Assembly (NCBI GenBank): GCA_030390025.1 | Contig: JASTWF010000340.1 | Coordinates: 310,001 to 374,000 of the forward strand | From: Squalus acanthias | Lineage: Eukaryota | Reading direction: 5' to 3' | Length of the DNA stretch: 64,000 bases | Shown here: positions 1,581 to 26,480 of the stretch, piece by piece | Numbering within the stretch: the stretch's first letter is position 1 | Layout: each line of letters starts with the position of its first letter | Position numbers and translations under genes: made by a program | Notes under the pieces: model-generated | Database searches by the model: none | What the model was told of the DNA's origin: nothing | Seen by the model: the letters and a program-made list of their open reading frames with translations, nothing else

Positions 1581-1582
1581 GG

Positions 1583-2304: not shown

Positions 2305-2369
2305 TCTATGTAATTAATTAAATGTATTGTTATTTACCCTTTAATTAATTTAAATTAAGACAATACACT

Positions 2370-3040
2370 TCTGTGACAGTTTGATCTGAAACTCTTCACT
2401 CTCCGTCCTGTGGCAGTTTGATCTGAGTCTCCTCACTCCGTCCTGACAGTTTGATCTGAGTCTCCTCACTCTCCGTCCTGTGGCAGTTTGTTCTTTGTCT
2501 CCTCACTCTGTCCTGTGGCAGTTTGTTCTGAGTCTCCTCACTCTCCGTCCTGTGGCAGTTTGTTCTGAGTCTCCTCACTCTCCGTCCTGTGGCAGTTTGT
2601 TCTGAGTCTCCTCACTCTCCGTCCTGTGGCAGTTTGTTCTGAGTCTCCTCACTCTCCGTCCTGTGGCAGTTTGTTCTGAGTCTCCTCACTCTGTCCTGTG
2701 GCAGTTTGTTCTGAGTCTCCTCACTCTCCGTCCTGTTGCAGTTTGTTCTGAGTCTCCTCACTCTCCGTCCTGTGGCAGTTTGTTCTTTGTCTCCTCACTC
2801 TCCGTCATGTGGCAGTTTGTTCTGAGTCTCCTCACTCTGTCCTGTGGCAGTTTGTTCTGAGTCTCCTCACTCTCCGTCCTTTCGCAGTTTGTGCTGAGTC
2901 TCCTCACTCTCCGTCCTGTGGCAGTTTGTTCTTTGTCTCCTCACTCTCCGTCCTGTGGCAGTTTGTTCTGAGTCTCCTCACTCCGTCCTGTGGCAGTTTG
3001 TTCTGAGTCTCCTCACTCTGTCCTGTGGCAGTTTGTTCAG
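2370..3040. repeat. 37-bp minisatellite, ~18 copies
   Basis: Unit CTCCGTCCTGTGGCAGTTTGTTCTGAGTCTCCTCACT with 35-bp variants, head-to-tail without spacers. Confidence 0.95.
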
Positions 3041-4345
3041 TCCATATTTGTGAACTTCTGTGTACTGTCTGTAGAACTAAACGCTACTGTGGAGTAATTC
3101 AGGCAGCGTTCAGATCAAGGAACTTATATTAACTTCACTTCCTCATTCAGTAAACTAAATTTTGCAAACATCAGAGATACCCGTCTTCAAAGTGGGCGGA
3201 GACTAATGACTTTCAACAAACACAATGCTGCAACTTCCCTTTGTGCTGAGAATTTATCTCTTAATCTCCAGCGTTTTGAATCTCAATTTCCACCGTTAGT
3301 GCCTCCAGCTATTCCATAATGAAGCTCGGCCGTTTGTATTGCCATTCTGTTTCGGGGTATGGCAGCATGTGGAGATCTGTAAAGATGCTCAGTGTTTGCA
3401 CACACACTCCAACCAGCTGTTGTCCTCTGTCTTTCAATTATGGTTTTACTCAGTCACAAAATGGAACTTTTCTGTTCTTTGAACAACTTTTTACGCGATT
3501 TTAAAGCCTTAGCCCCAAAAGCTTATTTTGATTCCTGCCGTTGATAATTGTCAATCTTTACAAACGGATATCTGGATAGAACTGATTTAACGGAATAATA
3601 GAGTCCTCCAGGAGGCCATTTTCCCCGTAGTGCCTGTACAGGCTCTTTGAATGAGCTGCTCAATTTGGTCCCACACCTGAGTATTTTAGTCATCGGCCTG
3701 AAATGTATTGCTCTTCAAATACCTGTCCAGTTGCCTTTTGAAACCGACTGTGGAATTTGATTCCAACACACAGTCAGTTGTGCGTTCCAGATCTTAAGTA
3801 CCCGCTATGTAAAATAAATCTCCTCATTTCCCTTCTAGTTATTTTGCCAATTATTTTAAATCTTTGACGTCTGGTTCCCGACGCACTTGCCTTTGGAAAG
3901 TTTTTCCCTTCCAGAGGAACAAAATAAAATAAGTACTAGAAGCAGGCGTAAGCAAAAATGTTTCAAGTCTCTCACCATTGAAAAAGTCTCCTGCTCTTTT
4001 GTTTTACCGAACTCAGTGAATAACTTCACACTTCCCCACATTGTAATGCATTCGCCATTTTCTTGCCCACTCAGTCAAACAGTCAATATCTCCCTGCAAC
4101 TTCTTTGCGTCCCCCTAACAGCTTACTTTCCCACTTAACTTTGTATCATCAGCAAACTTGGATACTTTACACTCAGTCCATTCATCTAAGTCAAGAAAGT
4201 GGTTGAAGAAAATACCTCAGCTATCTTCAAAATGAAATTGGACGATTACATGAGAGAAATGGGAATAGAAAGATAGGCTGAAAAGCTGAGATTAGGTAGA
4301 TGGAATGGGAAGAGATTCTTACACCGTTTAAAAAAACAGCACGAA

Positions 4346-5150
4346 TAAGAACATATGAAATAGGAGCAGGAGTAGGCCATTCGGTCCCTCCAGCCTGTTC
4401 CAACGTTCAATAAGATCATGGCTGATTTTCTACCTCAAAATAACTTTCCTGCACTATCTCCATATCGCATGATTCCCTTAATATCCCAAAATCATTTGAT
4501 CCCTGCCTTGACGACTGACCCTCCACAGCCCTCTGGGGTAGAGAATTTCGAAGATTCACCACCCTCTGAGTGATGAAATTTCTCCTCAAACCAGTCTTAA
4601 ATGGCCGACCCCTTATTCTGAGACTGTGACCCCTGGTTCAAGACTCCCCAGCCAGGGGAATCATCCTCCCTGCATTTACCCTGTCATACCTGTAAGAATT
4701 TTGGATGTTTCAATGAAATCACCTCTCATTCTTCTAAACTTTAGAGAAAATAGGCCTAGTCTACTCAATATCTCCTCATAGGACACTCTCCCATCACAGG
4801 AACCTGGCTGGTGAACATTTTTTGCAGTCCCACTATGGCAAATATATCCTTTCCTAGGTAAGATGACCAAAACTGTACACAATTTTCCAGGTGTGATCTC
4901 AGCAAGAGCCTATATAAGTGCAGTTAGACTTCTTTACCCTTGTACTCAAATCCTTTTTTAATAAAGGCGAAAGTAACATTTGCTTTCCTTATTGCTCGCT
5001 ATACCAGCATGTTAACTGTCAGTGATTCTTGTACAAGGATACGCAGGTCCTTCTGAAGAGCAACATTTCCCAATCTCTTACCAATTATAAAATACTCTGC
5101 TTTTCATATTACAGATGATAAGTTCACATTTCTCCACATTATATACCTGT
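4346..5150 (-). mobile_element. CR1 LINE 3' fragment with tail
   Basis: AAGAACAT..GAAATAGGAGCAGGAGTAGGCCATTC 3' end; ORF GLFSLKFRRMRGDFIE. Confidence 0.85.
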
Positions 5151-8100
5151 TGGACCGAAGGGCCTATTTCTGTGTATTCTATTTAATTATCTTCTTTTAT
5201 TCGTCGTTGGCAAAGCTAGCATTTGTGGTCCCTCCACTAATTGCCATTGAGATCAGATCAGGTGAGGACAGCAGATTTTCTACCCACGTAAGCCAGATGG
5301 GGTTTTATGACAATTCGATAGTTTCATGTTCACAATTAGTCCAGATTTATTTAATTAACTGAATTTAAATTCCCCAGCTGTTTTGTGGTTGGATTTGAAC
5401 TCACGTCTCATCAGTCTTGTTTGACATGGATTAATTGGAATACTAGTTCAGTAATATTACCACGATGCTACCGTTCCCTTGCTGTGTTAAAACCCATCCT
5501 GATTTAGAATATCTCGATTATGTATCCCCTTAACCTTCCCTGCTCTAATGAAAACAATCCCAGCTTCTCCAGTCTCTCCCCATAACCGAAGCCCCTCATG
5601 CCTTGTACCATCCTGGTAAACCTCGCCCGTACCCTCTCCAAGGCCTTGACATCCTTCCTAAAGTACAGTGCCAGAATTGGACACTATACTCCAGCCCAGG
5701 GATATTCACATATTTAGCATGACTTCCTTGTTTATTGCATTCAATGGCCCCGTTTACACAGCCAAGTATCTCTCCCCTTTCTGAACCGCCTTATATGTTT
5801 GGAGAATGCAGAACGAGGGAGACAAATCTAATATGAAGCCCAACTGAGAGATTAGGAGATATTAGGTGGAATATTAAATATCTTTCTGCATTTGAAGTAA
5901 ATAAAATTTAATGCATTCATAGAAACAGAATGCAGCTGTATCTGATATGCTTTTTTTAATTATTTAGAAATCGTATCAAAAAGATTGCCAAAATATATTT
6001 CCATTCAATTTGTTTGATCACATTTTTGGCTCCCATGCACTGTTGTTACTATCAGGGGGTAGGTTCCTCTGTGTCCGAGGTGAAGCACTGCTTAGCTGAA
6101 ACCATAGGTTTCCATTGTAAGCAGTTGCTCTCACTGTTAACATCAGCCTGAAATGTTTTATATCCTTTACTTATCGGTTATTAATTATCTTCCTTATTCC
6201 ATGCAGATGACACCTGCATCGTGATATTTGTGACAGTAATAACATGATTGTAACAGCAACGGTGTCCATTGAATACAAATACCATTCGTTTCAAATAATG
6301 TAGATTCCATTTCCTCCTTCAGTTTGCTCGAGCTGTCGATGTCACTGACATATAGATCTGCACAGTGGTTGGAGAATAATGTTCTTCAATAAAGATAGTG
6401 CTGCAGATGTTCGTTGTGCTCAGCATTTACACCTAAATCTGTAATTACCAATTGCACAGAATTTTGTATGTGAACCGCCAGGATTCTGTTCCTGCATCTC
6501 TAAGCATTTTGATAATTAAGCTCATATTGCCTGTCCTCCTTATTTATCCAAAATCCATCACTTCACACTTGTCTGCATTAAATATCATACTTTTGGCCAT
6601 CCCCTTCATTACCGTTATCTGTATGTCCACAAATATCTCATCACTTTCATTTTAATAGTTGTTCTCTATTTCCCTTTATGTCATGGATTCTCTGAAGGAA
6701 AGCCAGGTCCTAATACATCTCTGCATTACACACTCTCACAATCTCTGCCTTTGTTCTGTTGGTTAGCATTTCAGTCCTCCAGTTACCGCCTCACCAACCA
6801 GTAGAAACAATAATCAGCGATTTACCAGAACAAAACCCATCATAATATATGTCTCCTACATCAGATCTGCTCCAAACAATCTGTCCGGAAATAAAAATTA
6901 ATTTTCCTCTCCATATATTTTAAGCGACTTGAATTCAATTTTATTAATAACTAAATGCCTGAGAATCAGTCTGCTACTGCATCTCTAATAGTGACTTCCA
7001 AAAGGGAACTGGACAAATAGTTCAAAAACAAAAAATACAGGGCGATGGAGAAAGAGCTGATGGGAGCGACTATTTGGAAAACACCTTCAAAGATTCGGCA
7101 CAGGCATGCTGTGCCAAACAGCCTCCTAACGTACTGACAGAATCTATAATTTTATGATTCTAATTGAGGGGGTATTTGAAAATTTAATTTAATTAATTAT
7201 GCGTTTTCAATGTGTCAGAAAGACTGCAACAATGTATTTTCATTCAATATGTTTGAAGATATTCTTGGTTCCGACGCACTTTTCTTACTGTCAGGGGTTA
7301 ACTTACTGTTTATCCGAGGTGAAGCGTTGTTGAGCTGAAACCACTGGTTTCCTTTATAAACAGTTTCAGTCACTGTCAACGAGAACAACAAAAACAACTT
7401 ATATTTATATAGCGCCTTTAACGTAAAAAATGTCCCAAGACGCGTCACAGGAGTGTTATAATAAAAACAAAATCTACATCGAGCAATATAAGGAATTAGG
7501 GCAGATGACCAAAGCTTCGACAGAGAGTCAGGTTTTAAGGAGCGTCTTAAAGGAGGAAAGAGATGTAGAGCTGCCTGCAATATTTCAAAATTCTTTAATT
7601 ATTGGTATTCAATTTTCTTCATCATTCCATGCCGAAGTCTCCAACATTGTGGAATTTGTGACAGTGAGTAAACAGACTGTAAGAAGGTTCGAATTAAAAT
7701 GAATTGTAACAACTTTGGTTTGTAAATATTAGACTTCACTTCCTCCTTCAGTATGCTAGAATTCACCATATCACTGAAATATAGACCTGCAGTGTGGGTG
7801 AAGATAATGTCCTTCAATAAACACAGTTCTGTGTCGGTCCCTCGTGCTCTGCATTTATTCTTTAATCTCCCTCCTTGTCCTATTGCCAATAATCTTAAAT
7901 CTGTACCAGCTGGTTACTGGTCCTCCGGCAACTAAAAATAGTTTTTCCCCATCTACTCGAGCAAAACCCTTCCTAATTTTTGAAGGCCTCTATTAAATCT
8001 CTGCTTAATCGTCTGTTCTCTAAGGAGCACAATCCCAGTTTCTCTAATCTCTCCACTTGACCGAAGTCACTAAGATTTATGCCATCCGTTCATATACCCC

Positions 8101-8551
8101 TGTTGCCTCCCACAATTCCCTTGGACAACAACCCAAGCGTCACCTGAGGATCTCCTACCTCCTAGCCCTGATCCTGAGTCTGTTCCAGTTTCTCTCCTAG
8201 GTCCACACATGCAATTTCCGTGAATATGTTGACCATGAAACCCACCTCCAGCTCACTTGACTTTATTCCCATTGAACAAAAGATCACCCAACTTCCTTTG
8301 CAGGAGCCAAAACAGTTGTAGTTGGGATTGATCAGTCTCCTCAGGTTTTTTCCTCCTCTTGCAGAACTACCATAATGCAGTTTGAAGCCTCCTATTTCTC
8401 CCAGTTCTTTTGCACTCTGTACCTAAATACGTCCCCTTATTTATAGGAGATGTTATGAGGAATTTTAAATATTTATATTATTTTAAGTGAGTGAATTGAT
8501 TTATATTAATAAATAAATGCAAGAGACTGTGTCTGTTACCTCACCTCTAAA

Positions 8552-8930
8552 AACAACAACAAAAATATATTGTATTTATGTAGCGCCTTTAACGTTGTAA
8601 AACGTCCCAAGGTGCTTCACAGGAGAATTATAAGGCAAAAAATTGTCACCGAGCCTCATAAGAAAAAATAAGGGAAGGTGACCAAAAGCTTGGCCAAAGA
8701 GGTAGGTTTTAAGGAGCATCTTGAAGGAGGAGAGAGAGGTGGAGAGGTTTAGGGAGGGAATTCCAGAGCTTAGGGCCCAGGTAACAGAAGGCACTGCCAC
8801 CAATGGTTGAGCGATTATGATCAGAATGTTCAAGAGGGCTGAATTAGAGAAGCACAGATATCTCGGGGGTTTGTGGGGCTGAAGGAGATTACAGAGAGAG
8901 GGAGGGAGAAGGCCATGGAGGGATTTCAAA
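8552..8930 (-). mobile_element. L2/CR1-group LINE 3' end (shorter copy at ~7383-7575)
   Basis: ORF KSLHGLLPPSLCNLLQP..SFKMLLKTYLF; tail GTGAAGCACCTTGGGACGTTTTAC..GTTGTTG. Confidence 0.7.
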
Positions 8931-9669
8931 ACCATATAGTTTGCAAAGTATTAATTATTCAGTATAAATGTATTATAAACTTTGTCACAATGTATTTCCA
9001 TTCAGTATATTTAAACACATTCTTTGGTTTCAGGCACTTTTTTTACTGTATGGGGTAAACTTCCTGTTTGTCCGAGGTGAAGAGTTTCTGAACTGAAACC
9101 ATAGATTTCCGTTCTAAGCATTTGCTCTCATTGTTAGCCTTAGCTTGAAATATTTTCATTTTTTTTAATTCTCGTTCTTAAATATTTCTTCCTTCTTATG
9201 TGCTGATTACACCCGCATTGTGATATTTGTGACAGGGAGTATACTGACTATAAAAGTATCGGTTTCCAGTGAATTCTAATGTTTTAGGCACAAGGGCACA
9301 TTTTGTTAATTGCCTTGGATTATTGGAATGATATGCAAATGAACATCTCGATAGAATTTATTCAGTTATGTTGAGTGAATCCATAACAAGGGGGCAGGAT
9401 ATTAAAACTACTGCCAGATAACTTGGAGTAAAAGCAGGAAGTACTTTCTCACACAAATTGTAGTGTAAATCTGGAACTCTCTGTATTTAGTGTCTGCCTA
9501 CATTATGATGTCATGTTCTGGAGTGGGAGCTGAACTAATAGCAGCCAGAATGTCACCAACTCAGTCACACTGAGAAATGTCCATAAAAAAATGCACGGCA
9601 GTCAGTCTGTATATTGATCCTCGAAAGATATTGCTGTTCAAATAACTGATTCATATTTTCTCTTTTTAG

Positions 9670-9702
9670 TGGTTTTTGGAGCTCGGAGAATCGTTTCTCA
9701 AG
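9670..9702 (+). CDS. Ig-receptor gene 1, signal-peptide mini-exon S2 ((V)VFGARRIVSQ)
   Basis: ttttctctttttag|TG GTT TTT GGA GCT CGG AGA ATC GTT TCT CAA G|gttagt; 33 nt, phase 1-1; completes a signal peptide with an S1-type exon like 59115-59145. Confidence 0.65.
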
Positions 9703-12700
9703 GTTAGTGTCGACGCTTTTCTCCAACATAATGAAATCGTGCAACTAATTTTCAAACTGCTAAAAAAATGAATTTGTTATTATGTAAATTAAATTCAATG
9801 CTGTAATACATCGTGCTATGACGTTTCTAGCAGTAATGCATGTCTGCATCTCAGTAGCTTTCACTCCACTGCATATGAGAGAAGTCTTTGTTTTCTGACA
9901 TTTTGCCCAGAGATACAAGGAAAGCTACAGTAAATCTTGGAGGAAATGTCAAGGTCAATATAAGTAAATAGATGTTGATGGAGAAGATAATGAGATCAAA
10001 GATAGCCAGTTTGTCAGGACCCGATTGTTTCCCCCCGTGGGGCGGGTGGCGGCCGGTGTGGGAGGGGCGGGGTTCAAATACTTAGGTGAGGAAATTGCTG
10101 ATGCGTTAGTCATGATCTTCCAAACTCTCTCGATTGAAGTATTGGCCAATTCGATTGCATTACTTACAGGCACTGTTTTATTTAAGAGGGGAGGAGAGAT
10201 CAACTTTGAAATTGTAGGCCCTTAAGTCTACTTGAGTTGTGGCGAATGCACTATAATCCATTATTAGGGACAGAGTGACTGAGCATTTGGACAGATATGA
10301 ACTGTTCAGAGAGATCCAGCATGAATTTGTAAAGGGTAAATCACGTCTATCGAACCTAGTTGATATTTTGAGGAGGTACCTAATTGGTGTTAAAGGACTG
10401 TCTATGAACGTTATTTATATGGGCTTCCAGAAGGCATTCGACTAGCTGTGCATGCACTAGAAGGCAACGTATTGAATTGGATATGAAATGGTTATTTTGT
10501 TGGAGACAGATAGTAGGGATAATGTCTCTAAACTCACATTGGCAGGATGTGACTAATGCTGACACCCGGGGATCTGTACTGGGGCCTCAGCTTTTCACTA
10601 TAATAATAAATGACTGAATTGAAGCAATAGAGAGCCGGATATCTAAGTTTGCTGACGAAACTAAGTTAGGTGGCGCAGTAAATAATACACACGTGAGCAG
10701 AAAGTTGTAAAGGGAGATTGATAGATTGGGTGAGGAAAGACTGCAGCAGACGGAATTTAAAGAGAGAAAATGTGACTTCTTCCACTTTGGACAGAATTTT
10801 CTACTTGCTAAAAAGCTCGGGAACGTGGACGAACGGAGTGATTTAAGGGCGAATGTACAGGAATAACTAAAATCTAGTGGACAGGTACAGATATTTAAAA
10901 AGGTTAGCGGAATGTTAGCCTTTATCTGAACAGAGCTGGAATAGGAAGCGGTGGAAGTTATGTTGCCGCTGTACAGAGCTCTGGATAGACCCCATCTGGA
11001 TTAACTGCATTCAGCTCTGGGCACCGGACCTCAGGAAGAATATAATGGCCCAAGAATTGCGGTCGGTCGCGTAGCTACAGACGATGGAGCTACAGAAGCG
11101 GAGATTTACTCCTCGGCGCTGCAGAGTTGTGTGCCACGTATGACATCACTAAAGCCAGCAGCGCAGCGTACAGCCTCTGCGTAACGGAAGACACGCCCAC
11201 AAAACCTATCAAAAACTAAGCCACGCCCAGATAAGCCTCTTTCAGTCTCTTCCATTGAAATTATATTTTAAAAACTTTTCAAAACTTCTAAAATCTTCTA
11301 AAAACCTTTAATTAATATGGTGCTTGATCTTATTTCATATATCAGCCGTTTGTTTCATTTTTTGATCCAAACCCACAATCTATTAGTCTCTATGCATTCA
11401 GCTTCCTTTTTTGATACTCAGTAAAGTTCTAACATAATGTTTTTGAACTTCAGAAAGCGATTCTAAACCATATATTCAATGTTAATTTTCAGGATTAAAC
11501 TATGTTATTCAGATCTCATTTAGACTGGTAATAGACACATTCAGTCTCCATGTTATGGAGGCGTTATATTGTTTATTATATTTTTCATTTTTGATTTTAA
11601 ATGATTTTTTCACTGAAATCTCATAGTATTTCATTTTATTTAACTTTATTTTTCAACTTCCCAAATAATTAAAATGAAACTCGACCAACAAAATATTATC
11701 CTGCATGAAAACGTTCACAATGTACACACAAAGATCTTCTTTTAACATAGAAACATAGAAACATAGAAAATAGGTGCAGGAGTAGACCATTCGATCCTTC
11801 GAGCCTGCACCGCCATTCAATGCGTTCATGGCTGAACATGCTACCTCAGTACCCCATTCCTGCTTTCTCGCCATACCCCTTGATCCCCCTAGTTGTGAGT
11901 ATTATATCTAACTCCCTTTTGAATATATTTAGCGAACTGGCCTCAACAACCTTGTGTGGTAGAGAATTCCATAGATTCACCACTCTCTGGGTGAAGAGGT
12001 TCCTCCTCATCTCAGTCTTAAATGGCTTCCCCTTTATCCTCAGACTGTGACCCCTGGTTATAGTTTTCCCTAACATTGGAAACATTCTGCCCGCATCTAA
12101 TTAGTCTAAACCAGTCAGGATTTTAAACGTCTCTATAAGATCCCCCCTCATTCTTCTGAACTCCAGAGGATAGAAGTTCAGTTGATCCAGTCTTTCTTGA
12201 TATGTCAGTCTGGCCATCCCATGAATCAATCTAGTGAACCTTCGTTGCACTCCCTCAATAGCAAGAATGTCCTTCCTCAAGTTAGGAGACCAAAACTGCA
12301 CACAATACTCCAGGTGTGGCCTCACCAAGGCCCTGTACAACTGTAGCATCACCTCCCTACTCCTGTACTCAAATCCCCTTGCTATGAAGGCCATCATGCC
12401 ATTTGCTTTCTTGACTGCCTGCTGCACTTGCCTTCCCACCTTCAGTGACTGATGTACCATGACGCCCAGGTCTCGTTGCACCTCCCCTTTCCATAATCTG
12501 CCACCATTCAGGTAATAGTCTGCCTCCCTATTTTTACCACCAAAGTGGATAACCTCACATTTATCCACATTGCACTTCATCTGCCATACATTTGCCCATT
12601 CACCCAACCGGTCCAAGTCACTCTGTAGCCTCCTAGCATCCTCCTCATTGTTCACACTGCCTCCCAATTTAGTGTCATCGCAAATTTGGAGATATTACAA

Positions 12701-15338
12701 TTAATCCCTTCGTCCAAATAATAATATATAATGTAAACAGCTGGGGCCCCAGCACCGAAACCTGCGGTACCCCGCTGGTCACTGCCTGCCATTCTGAAAA
12801 GTACCCATTTACTCCTACTCTTTGTTTCCTGTGTGCCAGCAAGTTCTCAATCCACGTCAACACATTACCCCCAATCTCATGTGCTTTAACTTTGCACACC
12901 AATCTCTTTTGTTGGACCTTGTCGAAGGCCTTCTGAAAGTCCAAATACACCACATCTACTTGTTCCCCCCCGTCCACCCTATTGGAAATATCCTCAAAAA
13001 ATTCCAGAAGATTTGTCAAGCATGATTTCCCTTTCACAAATCCATGCTGACTTGGACCTATCATGTCGCCACTTTCCAAATGGTCTGTTATGACATCTTT
13101 AATAATTGATTCCATCATTTTACCCACCACCAAATGTCAGGCTGACAGGTCTATAATTCCCTGCTTTCTCCCTCTCTCCTTTTTTAAAAAGAGGGGTTAC
13201 ATTAGCCACCCTCCACTCCTGCGGAACTGATCCAGAGTCTAAGGAATGTTGGAAAATGATCGTCAATGCATCCACTATTTCCAAGGCCACCTCCTTAAGT
13301 ATTCTAGGATGCAGACCATCAGGCACTGGGGATTTATCAGCCTTCAGTCCCAACAATTTCCCCAACACCTTTTCCCGACTGATAAGCATTTCCCTCAGCT
13401 CCTCCCTCTTACCAGATCCTTTGATCTCTTTTATTTCCGGAAGGTTGTTTGTGTCCTCCACAGTAAACACCGAACCAAAGTACTTGTTCAATTGATCTGC
13501 CATTTCTTTGTTCCCCATTATGACTTCCCCTGTTTCTGACTGCAGGGGACCTACATTTGTTTTTACTAACCTCTTTCTTTTTACATATTTATAGAAGCTT
13601 TTGCAGTCCGTTTTAATGTTCTCCGCAAGCTTCCTTTCATATTTTATTTTCCCTGCCCTAATCAAACCCTTCGTCCTCCTCTGCTGAGTTTTAAAGTTTT
13701 CCCAGTCCCTGGGTTTGCTGCTACTTCTGGCCAATTTGTATGCCACTTCCTTGCTTTTAATACTATCCCTGATTTCCCTTGTTAGCCATGGTTGAGCCAT
13801 CTTCCCTTTTTTATTTTTACGCCAGACAGAGATGTACAATTGCTGTAGTTCATCCATGCGATCTCTAAATGTCTGCCATTGTCCTTCCACTGATAACCCC
13901 TTAAATATCGCTTGCCAATCTAACCTCGCCAATTCACGCCTCATACCCTCAAAGTTGCCCTTATTTAAGTTCTGGACCATGGTCTCTGAATTAACTGTTT
14001 CCTTCTCCATCCTAATGTAGAACTCCACCATACTATGGTCACTCTTCCCCAAGGGGCCTCGCACCACAAGATTGCTGATTAGTCCTTCCTCATTACACAA
14101 CACCCAGTCCAGGATGGCCTCCCCTCTAGTTGGTTCCTCAACATATTGGTTTAGGAAACCATCCCTTAAACACTCTAGGAAATCCTCCTCCACCGTATTG
14201 CTTCCAGTTTGAGTAGCCCAATCTATATGCATATTAAAGTCACCCATGATAACTGCTGCGCCTTTTTTGCATGCACCTCTGATTTTCTGTTTCATATCCT
14301 CCCCCACCCCACTACTACTGTTTGGAGGTCTGTACACAACCCCCACTAACGTTTTCTGCCCTTTGGTGTTCTGCAGCTCAACCCATATTGATTCCAAATC
14401 CTCCAAGCTAATGTCCTTCCTAGCTATTGCATTAATCTCCTTTTTAACAAGCAATGCTACCCCACCCCCTTTTCCTTTTATTTTATCCTTCCTGAATGTT
14501 GAATATCCCTGGATATTCAGTTCCCATCCTTGATTGTGCTGGAGCCACGTCTCTGTAATCCCAATCACATAATGGCCCAAAAATTCATCCTGGTGCGCGA
14601 GAGTACGCACTGCGTACACTCGCGTATTCCCTCTTCAATTGCCGGTTTTCTGCATGCACTACGCATGCGCTGAAAACCGGCACTTCATGTCTGGTCAGTT
14701 TCATGGATATGCGAGTAATCGCGTGGGCTGGTGATTCTGCGCGTGCGTCGGAAAATTCATGTATTTTGTGAATGAGAGTAGTGTGTGTAAGCTCCGAGCA
14801 GTTACACATTTTAAAACCAGGAGCAGCAGCCATTTATACATTTGCCGAGATAAGTAGGAGGAAGAAATCCTTTTGGAGTGTGGCTACTGAGGTGAGTTTT
14901 TTAAATTTGAAAGACACAAAAGTTTTAAATGAAGTCTTATATAAGTTAAGAGTTTAAAAAAAAAAATTTAAAAACGGGTTTTGACCATTTGGAGTAGTAT
15001 AGCAACTGTGGGTGTGTACAAGGCATATTTAGGTATCTATCTGTGAAAATGAAAGTTTAAAAATGAACTGTTTACGTTTCAAAAAGTTTTAAAGATGAAA
15101 ATGAGTAAGTAAGTAAGTATGTATGTATGTATGTATGAATTTATGAAAATGTTACAGGTTTGGAAAATCAGCTAGGGCCGTGTGGCGGGTAGATGTGTTC
15201 CCAAGCTGATAGCGCACGTGTCCCACCATAGCCTGACCTGATTTTATAGCCACTCACTTAACTAAAGTTACTTTAACAACTATTTCCATTTTTTCATTAC
15301 AACTTTCAGTTTGAGGAGGAAGCCTGTGTGAGAGAAAG

Positions 15339-16490
15339 ATGCCCTTTTGCAATCGATTGTTCTTCCTCCTCTGTGTGATTACGTATCTGAGAATTTTCGA
15401 ATACAGACAACGAATCAGACGGAGGAACCAAGCCCGTCTCCTCCAGAGAAGGAGAAACTACTACCCACCAAATAGAGTGTACAGGCAGAGGCTGTCATTT
15501 GAGATGCTGTCGGAGGAGCTGTGTGTGAGGAGGCTGCGCTTCAGTAAAGAGTCAATTGGCCGAATCTGTGAGATGTTACAGGAGGACCTTCAAACACGCA
15601 CGAAGAACCGCAATGCATTGTCACTGAGCATGAAGGTAACCACAGCACTGAACTTCTTTGCAAGTGGGACTTTTCAGGCAAGCACCGGTGACATTTGCAA
15701 CATATCCAAGAATGCTGCGAGGGCCTGCATTCACCAGGTCACAGAAGCCATTTACCGTAGGACTTCTGAGTTCATTAAGTATGACTTGTCTGCTCGCCAT
15801 CAAAAGGAGATGGCGCTTGCATTTCATAACATTGCTGGATTCCCCAAAGTGATTGGGGCTGTCGATGGAACCCATGTAGCATTGAAGGCACCAGGGGTTG
15901 CACCTGTGACATTTATCAACAGGAAGGGGTTTCATTCACTGAATGTCCAGATTGTCTGTGATGCGCATCTCAGGATCTTAAATGTGAATGCAGGTAACCG
16001 TGGAAGTAATCATGACTCCTTCGTCCTCCGTAACTCTGACTTATATGGCGTCCTCAACGCATTGCCTCCAGGATCCGCATGGATATTGGGCGACAAGGGC
16101 TACCCGCTAAGACCATGGCTGATGACTCCCTACCGCAAGACCAATAATGAGGCTCAGGAGAGATACAACCAGGCACACGTGTCCACACGGCAAGTGGTGG
16201 AGAGGACAATTGGAGTTCTGAAATCACGCTTCCGGTGCCTGGACAGGTCAGGGGGGACCTTGCAGTATTCTCCTCAGAAAGTGGCAAAGATTGTGGTGGC
16301 CTGTTGTGCTTTGCATAACTTTGCCCTGCAGGAAGGACTGACCCTTAACGCTGCAGATGAACTACCTGCAGAAATGGAGGACGTGGACAATGCCAATGTG
16401 CCTGTGGGAAGGCATGATGTGGAAGAGCCAACTGCTGCTCAAAGTAAGGCTGCAAGGGAGCAGCTGGTAGCCAACACCTTCACGAGGTAG
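15339..16490 (+). CDS. Harbinger DDE transposase (HARBI1-like family), 383 aa, uninterrupted
   Basis: ALNFFASG HTH region; catalytic motifs VIGAVDGTHV, NRKGFHSLNVQIVCD, GSNHDS, ILGDKGY, RQVVERTIGVLKSRF, ACCALHN; probable 5'UTR intron 14892-15309. Confidence 0.95.
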   Translation: MPFCNRLFFLLCVITYLRIFEYRQRIRRRNQARLLQRRRNYYPPNRVYRQRLSFEMLSEELCVRRLRFSKESIGRICEMLQEDLQTRTKNRNALSLSMKVTTALNFFASGTFQASTGDICNISKNAARACIHQVTEAIYRRTSEFIKYDLSARHQKEMALAFHNIAGFPKVIGAVDGTHVALKAPGVAPVTFINRKGFHSLNVQIVCDAHLRILNVNAGNRGSNHDSFVLRNSDLYGVLNALPPGSAWILGDKGYPLRPWLMTPYRKTNNEAQERYNQAHVSTRQVVERTIGVLKSRFRCLDRSGGTLQYSPQKVAKIVVACCALHNFALQEGLTLNAADELPAEMEDVDNANVPVGRHDVEEPTAAQSKAAREQLVANTFTR

Positions 16491-16500
16491 TGTCGCCTTG

Positions 16501-16620
16501 TACCTCCCGCTCCCCCTCCCCTCTCCCCCTCCCCCTCCCCTCTCCCCCTCCCCCTCCCCTCTCCCCCTCCCCCTCCCTCTCCCCATCCCTCTCCCTCTCC
16601 CCCTCCCCCTCCCTCTCCAC
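16501..16620. repeat. (CCCCT)n polypyrimidine tract in the transposase 3'UTR
   Basis: Direct reading; G-runs on the minus strand. Confidence 0.9.
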
Positions 16621-17123
16621 CAGCAAGGCAAATAAAGGTACAGACACAATTTAAAGTGAAACAGTGCTCTTTTATTGCAGCATTACAGACTTCTGAGGTT
16701 CATTGTTGCTTTACATAGTTTATAACTTTTCAATGTTAACTAGCTACTTTTCAACTTTGTAAACAATCGTAAACAGAAATAGGTTTTTCAAAAATTTGTT
16801 AACAGTTCTCAGTAACTTTTTTGCTTCGTTAATGCAGTAAAGACATTCAAGATGGGAAATAACTCTTTCCTATATGTAAACAAGTTTAAATGTTCAATTT
16901 TTTTGTGAAAATAAACAATTTGAATTTTTATAAAGTGACTAAAGGCTGTACTTTTTCAATGAAAAGCTAACTTTCAGTTTCAGTGTCAAATATATATATA
17001 AATAAAGAAAAATGTAAACATGTAAGTTTTAAATAAAACTAAAAAGTAAACACTTGAGAAATTTAACCACAAATAAACTATTCCTGAGGGTCAATGGATG
17101 TGCATTGTGGAACATGCAACACC

Positions 17124-18674
17124 CTAACGTCTCTTGCGCTTTCTTGATTGCATCATCGTTGGTGGCTCTTGGACCTGCACTGATTCTGCGCTGGGAGCAG
17201 GTAAGGTTGGTTCTGATGGAGTCACAGTAATTGCAGCAGAAATTATTCGCATGAGTCCTTCAAGAGACTCATTTATTTTACTAAGCTGCACTCCCACCAG
17301 TCCTTCAAGAGACTCATTTAATTTACTAAGCTGCACTCCCACATCGGGTTTCTGCAACATTCCTTCAAGAAAATCATTTATTTTACTAAGCTGCACTCCC
17401 ACATCGGGTTTCTGCAACATTCCTTCAAGAGACTCATTTATTTTACTAAGCTGCACTCCCACATCGGGTTTCTGCAACATTCCTTCAAGAGACTCATTTA
17501 TATTCTTAAGCTCCATTCCCAGATTTCCCAATCCCTGCTTGACCAAGGTAAGACAATCAACTTCTTTCTCTGAAATAGAAGAGATCGATTGAGTCAAGCC
17601 TACAAGTTGGTGGATGTCACCATGCATCTCCTGTTCTGCTGCATATATATCTGTGTCTCCCACAGGCACTGTAGTATCAAGCTGCTGTCTGTTTGGCACA
17701 GAGCCAGAGGGGCCAGGAGTTGGAGAGGAAGATTGAGAGGACCTCTCCTGCAACCCAGATTCCAGAACCTCCATGATTAATTCAGCAAAAACTTCCTCCT
17801 GCTGCTCCTCCACCAACACCTCACTCGCATCTCCCACTGGCTCAACATGCCCTTCACCAATGACCTCTTCGGCTGCAGACTCAACGCACTGCTCATCCCG
17901 TGACTGAGAAGTATGCTCTAAACCTATGTAAAGGAAACAGTAAAGATTAGCAAAGGTAAAGCATGATGTGCCACATCACAGAAGCTATTCAGCACACATC
18001 ACCTTTGTCGAATCGTTCATTTCCAAAGGGACATCCGCTAAGATATCCAAAGATATGCTCGAGCCTTTCCTCATGTTCGGTTAAAGCCCTTAACATGACA
18101 ACACCACCGCCTGTCAGTGAACGTTCTCTGGCGTTGTGAGCAGTTTTACTCTAAAATTGAAAATGAAAATCTGAAATGTAAGGGTTTTTACACCAAAACT
18201 GCATTGGCACTCACACAGTTAACTCAGTAAGCAACTCAAAGCATTTCAATCAAGATGACATTAGCATTTTATGAGACTTGCCTGGCTACAAAAGCCACAA
18301 AAATTTATGGTAGCATCTTGTGACTTCAGTTAACTCAGCTTAGCAAACAAACACTTTTTCAAGGCTTTTCATTTTAAATGTAAAGACATTTTAACATTGA
18401 CTTTTGTTATAACTATACAAACCTTCAGCGTTCGATATAAATCGCTGAATTTTTTGCGACATTGCTCAGCTGTACGTGGAATGGTCGAGGTTGCGCTCAC
18501 ACTTTGAGCAACCTCTTTCCACGCTGCCATTTGGCCTTTTCGCGGCGGCTTGGACTTCTGAGTTCCAATTATCCGTGAACGTTTCGATTCTACCTCGTCA
18601 AGAAGTGTACGGAGATCATCATCACTGAAATTCTGTGTTCTTTTGATAAATTGGATAGTGCTGATAGCAGCCAT
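17124..18674 (-). CDS. Harbinger Myb/SANT (MSANTD/trihelix-like) DNA-binding protein, 3 exons (18674-18423, 18150-18003, 17923-17124), 399 aa
   Basis: NFSDDDLRTLL..AWKEVA..RTAEQCRKKFSDL; exon 2 SKTAHNARERSLTGGG; GT-AG introns of 272 and 79 bp; 252+148+800=1200 nt open; C-terminal RKRKRR. Confidence 0.88.
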
Positions 18675-21334
18675 TTTCGTTTGCTGATTATAAACAGTTA
18701 AATCTCTGAAAAAAATGATTTCTGTACTTTTAAAAGTACTTAAATTACTTTAAATCTCTTTGCAAATGTTTAACATTACTCAAATTATACTAAAAATCTT
18801 TAAAAGTTTACAAAACCATGCATTTAAAACCTACTTACTGCAAATTCCACCTGAAACAGTGAGAAAACTGTGTCTCCAGCAGCTTTACAATGGCTTCAGT
18901 GGAGAAAAAAATCGGGGGCGTGGCCTATGGAAAAGAGACCTTAATGGGCGTGTCTTCACTCCACATCGCACGCGATGCAACGCGCACGCTGCGCTGCAGG
19001 GCAGTGTGACGTCATACGCTTCCCTGCACTCAATCAGCCAGAAGATGAATTTTCAACGTGGAAAAGAGGAAACGGCAGACGCGGTATGTATTACCGCGCC
19101 TGCTCCTTACACCCGCGGGAACGGAGCCAGATGAATTTCTGGCCCAATATCCGTTAACATCAATTTGCACAGTCAATTCATCCACCTTATTACGGATAAT
19201 CCTTGCATTAAGACACAGAGCCTTTAGGCTTGTTTTATTAACACACTTTGTCCTTTTAGACTTATGATTTAATATGGCCGTTTGTGTTTCTTGCCTTTAT
19301 TTACTCGGATTTCCCTTATTGTTTCTCACCCTTCTCACATTTGTTTCTGACTGCATATTACTTCCCCCTGTTTCGCTACATAGGTTCCCATTCCCCTGCC
19401 ATATTAGTCTAAATCCTCCCGAACTGCCTTAGCAAATATTACCCCGAGGACATCGGTTCCAGTCCTGCCCAAGTGCAGACCGTCCCTTTTGTACAGGTCC
19501 CACTTCCCCCAGAACTGGTTCCAATGCCTCAGGTATTTGAATCCCTCCCTCCTGCGCCACTGCTCAAGCCACGTATTTAATCTCGCTATCCTGTTCATGC
19601 TACTCTGATTAGCATGTGGCACTGGTAGCAACCCAGAGATTACTACCTTTGAGGTCCTACTTTTCAATTTAGCTCCTAGCTCCCTAAATTCTGCTTGTAG
19701 GACCTCTTCCCGCTTTTTACCTATATCGTTGGTACCTACATGCACCACGACAGCTGGCTCTTCACCCTCCCTTTCAAGAATGTTCTGCAGCCGCTCCGAG
19801 ACATCCTTGACCCTTGCAGCAGGGAGGCAACATACCATCCTGGAATCTCGGTTGCGGCCACAGAAACTCCTGTCTATTCCCCTTACAATTGAGTCCCCTA
19901 TCACTATAGCTCTACCACTCTTTTTCCCGCCCTGCTGTGCAGCAGAGCCAGCCATGGTGCCATGAACCTGACTGCTGGTGCCTTCCCCTGGTAGGTCATT
20001 TCCCACAACAGTATCCAAAACGGTATATCTGTTTTGGAGGGAGACGACCGCAGGGGACTCCTGCACTACTTTCCTGATATTGCCCTGCCTCTTGGTCACC
20101 CATTTACTCTCTGACCTAGTCTTTACCTGCGGTGTGACACAGGCTCCTGCGCCTGCTTTCAGTAACCGTAACATTTTCGGACATAATTGCTGGGCAGTTG
20201 GTGGGCAATTAGCCCAAATCTATAAAATATTTAGTATTTCGCCGTCGGTGCGGATCATCTGTCAAGGCGAACCTTGACAGATCGCTGGTTCGGGATTTAG
20301 CGCATACACAAGCACATGCGAAAATCACGAACTTGCGGTAAATTTCAAAGGTGGTATGACGGATGCTCTCTGAGTAGGTCGTCATGCCCACTGCAAAATC
20401 TGCCCCATTAGCTTTAGAGGGTGTGCAGCGCAGATTCACCATAATGATACCGAGGATACAAGGGTTAAACTATGTTGAGAGGTTCTATACTCCTGGCTTG
20501 CATTTCCTCGAGTACAGAAGGTTAAGGGGTGATCTAATTCAGGTGTTTAAGATGATTACAGCATTTAATCTGGTAGAAAGAGAGAAACTATTCCGTCTGG
20601 TGGTAGAGTACAGAACAAGGGCCCATAACATTAAAATTAGTGCTAGGCCCTTTAAGGGTGATGTCAGGAAACTCTTCTGTACACAAAGAGTAGTGGAAAC
20701 CTCGAACGTCACCCAACAGTCGGTTGGGAATAGGGCAATTGAGTATTTCCAAACAGAGATTGATAGATTTTTATTAAGCAAGGGTATTAAGAGTTACAAA
20801 ATCAAGGCATATCGATGGAGTTCGGATATCGATCAGCAATGATCGAATTGAATGGCGAAACAGGCTCATGGAGCTGAATGGCCGAGTTCTGTTCCTATGT
20901 TCCTGTATCCTTAATCTTAGACGTTCCTTAGATGTCCAAAAGGTGCATTTGCGCCATCTTTCGGTGAGCAATGGCCTCTCTAAAGCAGATGACTAACATT
21001 AATTCCTTTTCTATTTTGGTAGAGCATAAATTCATAGCCTGATACAATCTCGCAAAACTGTAATAGGCCATTCCACCCGTCCTGACTGTGAAGGCTCTTT
21101 GAAAGTGTTGTACAATTGAATCCCACAGCCCAGCTTTTACTGTAAAGCTGAAAATTAGCATCCTTCAAGTACATGCCCAATTGTTTGTTCTTATTGAATA
21201 TTTTTTCACTATCTTTTCAGATAGTGCTTTTCCAATTCTAAAAATCATCTGTGTGAAAAAAATTCTACTCCGGTCCCGGTCCCTTTTACTTCTTGTCCCA
21301 ATTATTTTAAATCACTGACCTCTGGTTAAGGCAC

Positions 21335-24300
21335 CTCGAGCCTGTTCCGCCATTTAATGAGATCATGGCTGTTCATCCAAATTCAGTACCCTGTCCCTGC
21401 TTTCTCCCCATATCCCTTGGTCTCTTTAGCCTTAAGAAATGTATCTATCTCCTTCTTGAATATATTTAATGAATTGGCCTCAACTGCCTTCTGTGGTAGT
21501 GAATTCCACAGGTTCACCACTCTCTGGGTGAAGAAATGCATCCTCATCTCAGTCCTAAATGGCTTACCCATTATCCGTAGATTGTGACCCCTTGTTCTGG
21601 ACTCCCCCGCCATCGGGAACATCCTTCCTTCATCTAGACTTTCTAGTCCTGTTAGAATTTTATAAGTTTCAATGAGATACCCTCTCATTCTTCTAAAGTC
21701 CAGCGAATATAAGCCCAATCGACCCAATCTCTCTTCATACGTGATTCCTGCCATCCCAGGTATCAGTCTGGTAAATGTTCGCTGCACTCCCTCCATGGCA
21801 ATAACCTCCTTCCTCAGATAAGGCGAACAAAACTGCACACAATACTCAAGGTGTGGTCTCACCAAGGCCTTATACAACTGCAGCAAGACATCCTTGCTCC
21901 TTTACTCGTACCCTCTCGCTATGAAGACCAACATAACATTTGACTTCTTAACCGGCTGCTGCACATGCATGCTTACCTTCAGCGACTGGTGTACAAGGAC
22001 TCCCAGGTCTCGTTGCACTTCCCCTTTTTCCAATCTATTCCCGTTCAGATAATAATCTGCCTTCCTGTTATTGCCACCTAAGTGGATAACCTCGCATTTA
22101 TCCACATTATACTGCATCTGCCATGCATCTGCCCAATCACCTAACCTGTCCAAATCATACTGGAGTTTCTCTGCATCATCCTCACAGCACACACGCCCAC
22201 CAAGCTTTGTGTCGTCTGCAAACTTAGAGATATAACATCTATTACCCTCGTCTAGATCATTACTATATATTGTGAATAGCTGAGGTCCTAGCACCGATCC
22301 CTGTGGTACCCCACTAATAACTACCTGCCACTCGGAAAAATACCCGTTTATTCCAACGTTTTGCTTCCTGTCTGCCAACCAGTTCTCTATCCAAATCAGT
22401 ACCTCACCCCCAATCCCATGTGCATTAACTTTGCACGCTAATCTCTTATGCGGGACCTTATCGAAAGCCTTCTGAAAGTCCAAATACACCACATCCACTC
22501 TTTCTTCCTTATCTATTCTACCAGTTACATCCTTAAAAAATTCCAGTAGATTAGTCAAGCATGATGTCCCCTTTGTAAATCCATGTTGACTTTGTCACTG
22601 TTTTCCAAGTGCTCTGCTATTACATATTTTGAGAAGTCGCACAACACCAGGTTCTCGTCCAACAGTTTTATTTGAAACCACAAGCTTTCGGAGCTGCTGA
22701 AGTGTTCCCCGACTGGGAGGTTACCTTCAGCAGTCAAGGACATTCAGCCTCGGATCTGCGGGTAAGCGTTCTCCAAGGCGTCCTTCGAGACATACGACAA
22801 CGCAAAATCATCGAGCAGAAACTGATAGCCAAGCTCCGCACCCATGAGGACGGCCTCAACCGTGATCTTCGGTTCATGTCACGCTACATGACGTAGAGCC
22901 ATCCAGACTCGAGTAGTCGTTGGCTTGTTCGCAGATGTGATTTCCAGTAAAAAAAAGTAAAGCGTTTAAAGTTTATGGTTTTCCATACAGACTGCAGCAT
23001 TTGACACATTAGACCCCCTGTGACCCCACCTCATTGTCTTAGTTGTATTCTCCTATGTCTTTGATATAATGCCTTCCTGACTGACTTGATTGTCTCTCTG
23101 CCGAGGTGTGATAAAAGGCAGTCAGAAAGATTAACTGTAGTCGTGTGACATTGTACGCTGCACAGGCATTGTTCTCTGTCTATATATGCTTTGCCGATTC
23201 GTATTCATTCACTTCACCTGACGAAGGAGCTGCAGTTCTGAAAGCTTGTGATTTCAAATAAAACTGTTGGACTATAACCTGGTGTTGTGCGACTTCCCAC
23301 TTTTGTCCACCACAGTCCAACACCGTTATCTCCGCATCATTACATCTTTTATAATGGACTCTAGCATTTTGCCCACTATCGATGTCAGGCTTACCGATAT
23401 ATATATCCCCGTTTTTTCTCTACCACCTTTATGACATAGTGGAGTTACATTAGCTACCCACCAATCCATGGAACTTTTCCAGGGTCTATAGAATTTTGAA
23501 GGATGATCAGCAATGCATCTACTATTTCGGGGGCCACTTCCTTAAGTACCCTTGGATGTAGATTATCAGGCCCTGGAGATTTATCGGCCTTCAATCCCAT
23601 CAATTTCCCGTACACCATTTCCCTACAAATAGTGATTTAATTCAATTCCTCCCTCTCATTAGACCCTATGTTCCCCGACATATCTGGGAGTTTAATTGTG
23701 TCCTCCTTTGTGAAGACAGAACCAAAGTATGTATTTAATTCGTCAGCCATTTCTTTGTTCCCCATTATAAATTCCCATGATTCTGACTGCAAGGGACCTA
23801 CACTTGACTTCACCAATCTTGTTCTCTTCACATATCTAAGAAGCTTTTACTCTCAGTTTTTATGTTCCCTGCAAGCTTACTCTCATACTCTATTTTCCCC
23901 CTCTTAATTAACCCCTTTGTCCTCATTTGCTGAATCCTAAACTGATCCCAATCCTCAGGTTTGCTGCTTTTTCTGGCCAATTTTTATGTCCTCTGGTTCG
24001 ATCTTATGCTATCCCTAATTTCCTTTGTTAGCCACGTCTGAGTCACCTTTTTTGTTTTATTTTTATGTCAAAAAGGGATGAACAAATTCTGTAGTTCATC
24101 CATGCGATCTTTAAATGTTTGCCATTGCCTATCCACCGTCAACCCTTTAAGTAACGCTCCCCAATCCACCCTAGCCAACTCGCGCCTCATACCATCGTAG
24201 TTTCCATTATCTAAATTCAGGACCCTAGTCTCTGAGTCAACTACTTCACTCTCCATCTTAATGAAGAATTCTATCATATTATAACCGCTAATCCCCAAGG

Positions 24301-26480
24301 GGCCTCGCACAAAAAGATTGCTAATTAATCCTTTCTCATTACATAATACCCAGTCTACGATGACCTGATCTCTAGTTGGTTCCTCTACATATTTTTCCAG
24401 GAAACCATCCCGTATACACTCTAGGAAATACCTCCTCCACAGTATTGTTACTAATTTGGTTAGCCCAATCTATATGTAGATTAAAGTCACCCATGATAAC
24501 TGCTGTGCCCTTATTGCACGTGTCTCTAATTTCCCGTTTAATGCCTTCCCCAACCTCAGCATTACTGTTGGGGTGTCTGTATACAACTCCCACTAACGTT
24601 TTCTGCCCCTTGTTATTTCTCAGCTCTACCCATACAGATTCCACATCATCAGAGCTAATATCCTTCTTACTATTGTGCTGATCTCCTCTTTAACCAGCAA
24701 TGCTACCCCACCTCCTTTTCCTTTTTTTCTGTCCTTCCTGAATATTGAATACCCCTGGATGTTGAATTCCCATCCTTGGTCACCCTGGAGCCATGTCTCC
24801 GTACTCCCAATTATATAATATCCGTTTACATCTATTTGTGCAAGGGATATGGGGAGAAATCAGGGACATGGTAGTGAATTTTGATGATCAGCCATGATCA
24901 CATTAAATGGCGTAGCAGGCTCGAGGGGCCGAATGGCCTACTCCTGCTCCTATCTTCTATGTTTCTATTTAATTCATCCACCTTATTACGAATGCTCCTC
25001 GCATTAAGACACAAAGCCTTCAAGCTTGTTTTTTTACCACTCTTAGTCCTTTTAGAATTATTATTTACTGTAGCCCTGTGTGATTTACACGCTTGATTTC
25101 TCTGCCTTCCACTTTTGCTTTCCTCCTTCCTGTCTTTTGCCTTATCCTTGCTTCCCTTTCCTCTGTTTCACGACACAGGTTCCCAACCCCTGCCATTTTT
25201 GTTTAAATCCTCACCAACAGCCCTAGCAAACACTCCCCCTAGTGGATCGGTCCCGGTCCTGCTCTGGTGCAAACCGTCCAATTTGTACTGGTCCCACCTC
25301 CCCCAGAACCGGTTCCAATGTCCCAGGAATTTGTATGCCTCCCCCTTGCACCATTCCTCCAGCCACGTATTCAGCTGAAATATCATTCTATTTCTACTCT
25401 GACTAGCACGTGGCACCGGTAGCAATCCTGAGATTACTACCTTTGAGGTCCTATTTTTTAATTTACCTCCAAGCTCCCTATATTCAGCTTTTAGTACCTC
25501 ATCCCGTGTTTTACCTATATCGTTGGTACCTATATGCACCACGACAACTGGCTGTTCACCCTCCCCCTCCAGAATGCCCTGCTGCCGCTCCGAGACATCT
25601 TTGACCCTTGCACCAGGGAGGCAACATACCATCCTGGAGTCTCGTTTTCGGCTGCAGAAACGCCTATCTATTCCCCTTACAATAGAATCCCCTATCACTA
25701 TAGCTCTCCCGCACGCTTTCCTCCCTCTTGTGCAGCAGAACCAAACATGGTGCCAACAAGTTGGTTGCTGCTGCCTTCCCCCGATAAGCCATCTCCCACA
25801 ACAATATCCAAAGTGGTATATCTGTTTGAGAGTGGGATGTCCACAGGGGACCGCTGCACTACCTGCCTGCGCCTACTACTCTGCCTGGTGGTCCCCCATT
25901 CCTTTCTTGCCTGTGCAGCCTTTACCTGCGTGGTGACCAACTCCCTAAACGTGCTATCCACGATGTCCTCAGCATCGCGAATGCTCCAGTATGCATCCAT
26001 TCGCAGCTCTAGCACCGCAATGCGGTCTGCCAGGAACTGCAGCTGGATACATTTCTCGCACACATGGTCAACAGGGACACAGAAAGTGTCCCTATTTCCA
26101 ACATAGCGCAGGAGGAGCATGCCACGGGGCTGAGCTGTGCTGCCATGACTTTTCTTTTAATTAATTTAAATTAACTCAAATCAATACCACAAATTACATT
26201 GCAATTAAATGATATACCCAAGAGCCCTTGTATACTAGCACTCCCTGCTACACAACAGAGACCTTAGAAATTATAACCACACACATTAGGACCTACTAAA
26301 CTTTATAAACTATTAACCTTAACTGTCAAACTGCGGAGTAGTATAAATACTCACCTGGCCGTACTCACCCAATCAGCTGCTTCCTCTTGTCCGCGTCACT
26401 TTTTGAATTGTGACGCGGCTCTGGAACGCCGCCGGCGGTCTGTGAGATTGGTTAGCCTCTGAAAAAAGGCCCGCGAAAGT
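21335..26480 (-). mobile_element. Near full-length degraded CR1 LINE (ORF1 ATG ~26146; ORF2 APE+RT fragmented)
   Basis: ORF1 esterase 25168-25698, Zn-finger CSSC/CEKC; ORF2 YLDFQKAFD, GVPQGSVLGP, FADDTK; contains a Penelope insert and a + strand CR1 tail at ~24842-24968. Confidence 0.93.
22631..23338 (+). mobile_element. Penelope-like element 3' fragment with inverted partial pLTR
   Basis: GIY-YIG C-terminus (EQKLIAKLRTHEDGLNRDL); 22632-22698 is an inverted copy of ~23225-23297; TSD ATTACATATTTT/ATTACATCTTTT at 22619-22630 and 23339-23350. Confidence 0.85.

Follow-up and report, generated by a model that had tools for sequence, protein, structure and literature searches.

Does the DNA between positions 14574 and 19145 of this stretch of the Squalus acanthias genome hold an intact Harbinger transposon, and might such an element still move? 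The window analysed here is the whole 64,000-nucleotide stretch (contig JASTWF010000340.1, positions 310,001 to 374,000), and a sequence-only reading of it had described an apparently intact, potentially active element with two open genes, terminal inverted repeats (TIRs) matching at 14 of 16 positions, an AAT target-site duplication (TSD) and CpG-rich ends, lying innermost in a nest of repeats. Positions 14574–19145 are indeed a full-length PHIS/Harbinger element of 4572 bp within a dead long interspersed nuclear element (LINE), which we take to be of the CR1 type, and each of these structural points was reproduced. The structural features of the superfamily are present, namely TIRs with a 3-bp TSD, a DDE_Tnp_4 transposase with its acidic triad and a Myb/SANT second gene, and we conclude with good confidence that the copy is intact and belongs to an autonomous shark Harbinger family, inherited vertically, of a type like Harbinger3_DR (NuwaI).

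Ends of the element and the LINE that it interrupts

The left TIR (14574..14589, plus strand, GGCCCAAAAATTCATC) begins with GGC and the right TIR (19130..19145, minus strand, GGGCCAGAAATTCATC) with GGG; compared as reverse complements, these 16-bp repeats are identical at 14 of 16 positions, the mismatches lying at positions 3 and 7. A pattern that merges the two has two exact matches in the whole window, and these are the two ends themselves. The TIR score alone was rejected as proof of the ends, since shuffled windows reach it: one TIR-plus-TSD pair of equal score occurs in the real window, and 1, 1, 0, 1 and 1 occur in five shuffled ones. The ends are fixed because they coincide with a break in the host LINE. 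When the element and one of its flanking AAT triplets (14571..14573 on the left, 19146..19148 on the right) are removed, the junction aligns gap-free with a paralogous LINE copy at 24670–24838 that has a single AAT at this place (142/169 positions identical). A duplication of 1 or 2 bp with longer ends was also considered, and was rejected as less parsimonious given this empty site. Repeat, pattern and TIR/TSD scans of the window found no further family members and no MITEs (miniature transposable elements with inverted repeats).

Domain search and repeat comparison place the host LINE at about 11746–20138 on the minus strand, with endonuclease and GDSL-like domains. Its 3' part (11746..14573) carries open reading frame (ORF) 2, broken by stops and frameshifts, and its 5' part (19146..20138) carries ORF1 with a GDSL/esterase-like domain; the element lies where the endonuclease region of ORF2 begins. 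In a self-comparison of the window, made without a repeat library, no repeat from elsewhere matches inside the element, which, together with its interruption of the LINE, makes it the innermost layer of the nest.

Both subterminal regions (14574..14803 and 18916..19145) have kept their CpG dinucleotides, with observed/expected ratios of 1.24 on the left and 1.09 on the right versus 0.57 for the whole window; as many CpG are held by 0.7% (left end) and 0.2% (right end) of 230-nt segments. The left region has short palindromes and repeats the TIR core internally, as AAATTCAT at 14753, and the right region has palindromes and an inner TIR-core copy near 19043. These regions probably act as promoters and Myb-binding sites.

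Two convergent genes and their splicing

The transposase is encoded on the plus strand by an intronless frame of 383 codons (15339..16490) that matches PF13359 with an E value of 1e-42. The acidic residues D176, D226, D252 and E288 are all present, among which we take D176, D252 and E288 to be the catalytic triad. An AlphaFold2 model of the protein has a mean predicted local distance difference test score of 86.9; relatives of solved structure were found neither by sequence nor by fold at E 0.001, the weak matches being other DDE transposases. Co-folding of transposase residues 1–335 with the 84-aa Myb domain gave a score of 0.02, which is evidence for neither contact nor its lack. Upstream of the start codon, donor-like sites at 14892, 15105 and 15113 (within 14892–15338) suggest that the 5' untranslated region (UTR) may be spliced like that of the Myb gene, and a CCCTCC-type simple repeat (16503..16618) separates the two stop codons.

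The Myb gene lies on the minus strand, convergent with the transposase gene, and its coding exons 18674–18423, 18150–18003 and 17923–17124 give a 399-aa protein with a PF13873 (Myb_DNA-bind_5) match at E 2e-14. This model is one of three top-scoring among 8691 open models, and outside evidence was therefore needed. Some came from a comparison of positions 17530–20400 with four sequencing runs, X3 and X15 (DNA) and X4 and X14 (RNA-like). Three minus-strand GT-AG joints are present in the RNA-like runs: X14 has all three (18150/18423, 17923/18003 and 18705/18839) and X4 has one (18150/18423), and their depth is 0 in both DNA runs (0/2). The exon that begins the reading frame (start codon at 18674) and encodes the Myb domain thus spans 18423..18705, coding exon 2 spans 18003..18150, and coding exon 3 spans 17124..17923, its acceptor being used in X14. 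Both introns of the three-exon gene that had been proposed are borne out, and the joint at 18705/18839 adds what that proposal had overlooked, a 133-nt intron in the 5'UTR (18706..18838, GTAAGT...TTTCAG; one X14 contig, depth 5.9) and with it a fourth, non-coding 5' exon. In all five shark Myb homologues matched, exon 1 runs straight into exon 2 (5/5 colinear), with 62–69% identity across the opening 29 residues of exon 2; intron 1, when read through, finds no genuine match. The splice evidence is at the level of the family, in organisms A and B, and the predicted splicing, whose disuse would have told against the element, is used by that family. No run on record as RNA is among the holders listed, a result that carries no weight.

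Exon 3 encodes an acidic stretch, a set of in-frame tandem repeats at 17254–17521 (60 bp × 3.7 and 45 bp × 2, with a 20-residue unit) and a C-terminal RKRKRR that is likely a nuclear signal. At the position of the tandem repeat, the shark homologues carry one that is shorter and differs in kind.

How would these parts work together? A two-protein mechanism is described for such elements (PMC9392472, PMC2836001), and DNA binding, nuclear import and chemistry are modelled here on the work with Harbinger3_DR and mPing. Each of the two convergent genes would be transcribed from a CpG-rich end; the Myb/SANT protein, made from spliced RNA, would bind the TIR core as well as the subterminal copies of that core, and would bring the transposase into the nucleus; and the DDE transposase would cut both ends and join them to the target with a 3-nt stagger, so that insertion would duplicate AAT within AT-AAT-AT.

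Copies and relatives of the family

The stretch searched for in the runs, or part of it, is present in 20 of the 23 runs listed, from eight studies and with four organism labels (A–D), and the four runs compared above are among these; the word fraction is 0.59–0.64 in A, 0.22–0.58 in B, 0.43 in C and 0.37 in D. Runs of organisms E and F have next to no words of it and carry no weight as evidence. For X3, depth in the bins that lie within the element is 1169–13191, single contigs there reach 577 and 377 (the latter with 0 differences in 103 nt), and the shallowest X3 contigs among those listed have depths of 7–17. Read depth is not copy number, but we infer from the X3 depths that the family has at least tens of copies. 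One X3 contig has a 365-bp internal-deletion joint (18539–18905), which could belong to a non-autonomous derivative.

Where three or more runs give a majority base, the copy in the window has another base at 17776, 18095, 18382 and 19021, which makes no fewer than 4 of 1616 sites in the rows listed. At codon 103 most of the X4 depth lacks the majority base, and at site 18095 the other base makes up 2.5 of 49.4 depth in X4. Over the pieces listed, the element differs from X4 at 11/1331 positions (0.83%) and from X14 at 23/1249 (1.84%), and the host LINE differs from X4 at 41/948 (4.3%), from X14 at 27/691 (3.9%) and from X15 by 5.9%, which supports an element younger than its host LINE. The 0.83% measures how far two copies are apart and not how far the copy is from a consensus, since at 7 of the 10 element differences listed for X4 the X3 run mostly has the base of the window.

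Where did the family come from? The best matches of the transposase are shark proteins (59–67% identical for the top six), and non-chondrichthyan proteins reach at most 48%. In a tree built from the window's transposase and 62 of the 120 matches listed, that transposase falls in a 34-row clade (support 100/99) together with 31 rows from named chondrichthyans (sharks, rays and a chimaera) and two unnamed rows, with no other named taxon; the nearest neighbours are damaged sawshark copies (99/93). HARBI1-type proteins, 34–36% identical to the transposase, form a separate clade in a tree of 42 chosen rows. Besides HARBI1-type proteins the trees held fish, amphibian and mollusc relatives, and were made without named NuwaI, PIF or Pangu references. 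Because the named taxa of the transposase clade are all chondrichthyan, the family looks vertically inherited, and the nearest proteins give no sign of horizontal transfer.

The sister of the window's transposase subclade is one HARBI1-like protein of 383–388 aa in 12 named sharks and rays, Pristis among them (P0007, P0008, P0127–P0137), one per species and 91–97% identical among the six compared. A Gly replaces its first catalytic Asp, it is 32–38% identical to HARBI1-type proteins, and it is probably the product of an undescribed, catalytically dead domesticated gene of sharks and rays. The closest Myb relatives (P0121–P0126) represent one conserved gene in six sharks, 67–98% identical, which is probably the domesticated partner. 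The domesticated Harbinger genes given in PMC9392472 are HARBI1, NAIF1 and MSANTD1-4, and our literature search found no paper on a shark-specific one. Further small chondrichthyan clades without catalytic residues are common to several orders (P0012/P0014, P0017/P0020, P0018/P0025/P0026/P0031, P0016/P0021/P0159 and P0039) and possibly reflect several more domestications; transposase-like proteins without catalytic residues also occur in turtles and a bird (P0174, P0178, P0182).

Several other repeats lie near the element or elsewhere in the window. The LINE paralogue contains an inverted LINE 3'-end fragment (24841–24968), some 20 bp away from the point equivalent to the Harbinger insertion in the host copy. 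Two copies of a 0.7-kb element (22630–23341 and 32265–32889), 76% identical and on opposite strands, have 68-bp inverted arms; the copy at 22630–23341 interrupts another LINE copy, and the TIR/TSD scan gave no 3-bp TSD for the arms at 22630–23299. Minisatellites are found at 2371–3038 (37 bp, 18 copies) and 42792–43620 (38 bp, 22 copies).

Target triplet, mobility and known systems

The insertion site reads TCACAT-AAT-ATCCGT, with a 7-bp palindrome (AT-AAT-AT) centred on W. The PHIS groups differ in their duplications, which are TWA in PIF/Harbinger, CWG in NuwaI, TNA in NuwaII and ANT in Pangu (Han et al. 2015, PMC4482050). This single site fits neither the TWA of PIF/Harbinger in the strict sense nor the CWG of NuwaI, its T|AAT|A differs from the C|TNA|G of NuwaII, and it agrees with the ANT of Pangu. 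The sequence-only reading had set AAT against a canonical TAA/TTA, but elements of the Harbinger3_DR group, the most similar one, normally make CWG instead. An AWT triplet is not new to the superfamily, since it is printed for Pangu/Harbinger2 (nine rows of Table S3 in PMC4482050, all Pangu, none with a vertebrate host) and under PIF/Harbinger in Table 1 of a MITE paper (PMC9033116). If borne out beyond this one site, an AWT target on a NuwaI-type element (DDE_Tnp_4 with Myb_DNA-bind_5) would be new; no such case was found in the literature searched, which did not include Repbase, Dfam or most subscription papers. The word Harbinger does not occur in PMC4255032. CAT or CGT is the usual LINE-family triplet at the target position (loose ends, 4/4 runs), the host copy and its paralogue have AAT, and one X14 contig stops at the TIR plus A (19146), observations that fit an A-W-T preference weakly and for one insertion. 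Among relatives in 80 metagenome loci (best 34–45% identity), the 47 loci of at least 2500 bp that were scanned for TSDs gave seven AT-rich candidates, none credible, at a cut-off score of 11 that would miss the present element (score 10).

Several observations weigh against an intact, autonomous family of the NuwaI kind. The stretch compared with the four runs is confined to the Myb exons, the right end and its flank; the maximum word fraction in any run is 0.64; unspliced contigs are also present in X4; the RNA status of X4 and X14 is a guess that is not on record; and the spliced contigs may derive from copies other than that at 14574–19145. Two of the four departures from the majority alter Myb residues, one at codon 183 and the other, a CpG-type change of ACG to ATG, at codon 103. 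More diverged relatives are present in the pieces listed for X15 (42/1083, 3.88%) and X3 (31/410, 7.56%, a value from four short pieces, some at joints), and a nine-site second haplotype at 17774–17799 in X3 and X15, and partly in X14, shows an older or parallel subfamily. A multi-copy family with low listed divergence is supported. The rows listed include no empty allele, no contig bridging the right junction and no other insertion flanks, so neither polymorphism nor fixation is seen. The AAT duplication is at odds with the CWG of NuwaI, and one TIR mismatch lies at position 3, where a single change lowers mPing transposition (as do single changes at positions 1–3 generally; PMC9921582). The TIR mismatches are nonetheless not decisive, because Pong is mobile with unequal TIRs (PMC9921582). 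We give the present copy an even chance of being biochemically competent, and we doubt that the family is still transposing in animals alive now.

Is the copy, then, a live source or a fossil? The epaulette shark has a mutation rate of 7e-10 per generation and a diversity (π) of 0.002 (PMC10587355), and at that rate a divergence of 0.2% corresponds to about 2.9 million generations (1.4 million at the upper bound). The last spread of the family was recent when counted in substitutions, but probably millions of generations ago; the "young natural element" of the sequence-only reading is therefore young in its low divergence (about 4/1616) and relative to the LINE, and less so in generations. A family transposing now, with this copy a segregating and fully active source, would explain the open frames, the canonical splice sites used by the family and the CpG-rich ends, and the distance of about 0.25% from the majority is of the order of shark within-species diversity, so that the insertion may still segregate. 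We consider this reading rather unlikely, however, given the departures from the majority and the generations that they imply, and near-identical sequence under four organism labels suggests a spread that predates their split. X3 contigs of depth 12–15 without the majority base at 18095, 18382, 19272 and 19280 (two element and two flank sites) also hint weakly at the same filled locus in another individual. The opposite view, that the family is extinct or silenced and the copy a fossil well preserved by slow shark change and immobilised by its altered TIR base, falls only somewhat short of an even chance: it draws on the very low shark mutation rate, the family's presence under labels A–D, the mismatch at position 3 and the damage in the sawshark relatives, and has against it the spliced family transcripts in RNA-like runs of two organisms and the mobility of Pong.

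The triplet admits two further explanations. AAT may be an off-consensus landing of a family that usually makes CWG or another triplet rather than a sign of a family-wide AWT preference, a proposal that we regard as tentative yet serious: there is one site, the architecture is that of CWG families, and the flanks match the Harbinger3_DR target consensus AAACACCWGGTCTTT (PMC3016246) at 7 of 15 positions, where about 4 are expected by chance. Both outer bases of AAT differ from CWG, however, the palindrome is centred on W, the element sits in an AAT copy of a LINE family that has CAT/CGT in 4/4 runs, and the X14 contig end is what would be expected if copies share the first A (one contig, and thus weak). 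Arrival by horizontal transfer, or membership of the Pangu group, which would then be new to vertebrates, would account for the ANT/AWT hallmark, for the Myb domain in two Pangu rows and for near-identical DNA under four organism labels of undisclosed kinship. We think this very improbable, since the nearest transposases are all chondrichthyan, the second protein best matches Myb_DNA-bind_5, as in NuwaI rows, and not Myb_DNA-bind_4, and the compared runs of A, B and D contain the family of the host LINE as well.

What hangs on the outcome? A 2022 survey found no Harbinger in the elephant shark and suggested a loss in cartilaginous fish, with other species to be checked (PMC9179366); an intact, transcribed family and its chondrichthyan-wide relatives speak against a general loss. 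A bolder proposal, which we think improbable, is that this shark family, from the lineage of Harbinger3_DR, is still mobile, has switched its duplication from CWG to AWT, stands between the definitions of NuwaI and Pangu and is the living sister of the undescribed domesticated shark/ray pair. If it is mobile and so switched, it would be a natural vertebrate Harbinger from which to learn which protein sets the target triplet, and if it is the living sister of the domesticated pair it would bear on whether domesticated genes restrain the element. Should AWT preference and mobility hold, it would be an unreconstructed vertebrate Harbinger with a target triplet unlike that of its closest characterised kin; otherwise it is one more well-preserved Harbinger copy.

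Natural intact vertebrate Harbingers are less rare than had been implied: the sea krait L. colubrina has 269 intact copies, with RNA over both genes in a sister species (PMC8437027), Harbinger expression is reported in teleosts (PMC9179366) and in newt, with a recent burst in Pleurodeles (PMC5741667), and an active animal Harbinger is reported in a nematode (bioRxiv 10.64898/2026.05.26.728016). Harbinger-Snek of the sea kraits resembles the shark element as a natural vertebrate Harbinger with intact two-gene copies transcribed over both genes, its present mobility being proposed and not demonstrated, but it was acquired horizontally and makes up 8–12% of the genome, whereas the shark family looks vertical (PMC8437027). 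Rice Ping/Pong/mPing share the two-protein mechanism, and Pong shares unequal TIRs, but they have a TWA target and demonstrated activity (PMC9921582, PMC2836001). HARBI1 and NAIF1/MSANTD belong to the same two protein families (PMC9392472); for a domesticated gene of that type a single fixed locus without TIR or TSD is expected, unlike the present element with its TIRs, TSD and many copies. Pangu/Harbinger2 (PMC4482050 Table S3; PMC12730594) is alike in its ANT/AWT duplication, in TIRs that may begin with GG and in two rows with a Myb domain; its second ORF is, however, mostly without a known motif, with a few cases of Myb_DNA-bind_4 and never Myb_DNA-bind_5, and it has no listed vertebrate host and a separate transposase clade. 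The closest likeness is to Harbinger3_DR/NuwaI (Han et al. 2015, PMC4482050), with DDE_Tnp_4 plus Myb_DNA-bind_5 (the latter in most annotated NuwaI rows), a length of about 4.5 kb (NuwaI mean 4462 bp), a short TIR beginning with GG, a 3-bp TSD with a central W and the partly shared flanks, and it is a likeness of architecture. The differences are AAT here versus CWG, GGC in the left TIR versus the usual GGG, a cartilaginous-fish host of which Table S5 of PMC4482050 lists none, and a natural intact copy where Harbinger3_DR is a reconstruction (PMC2836001, PMC3016246, PMC9392472).

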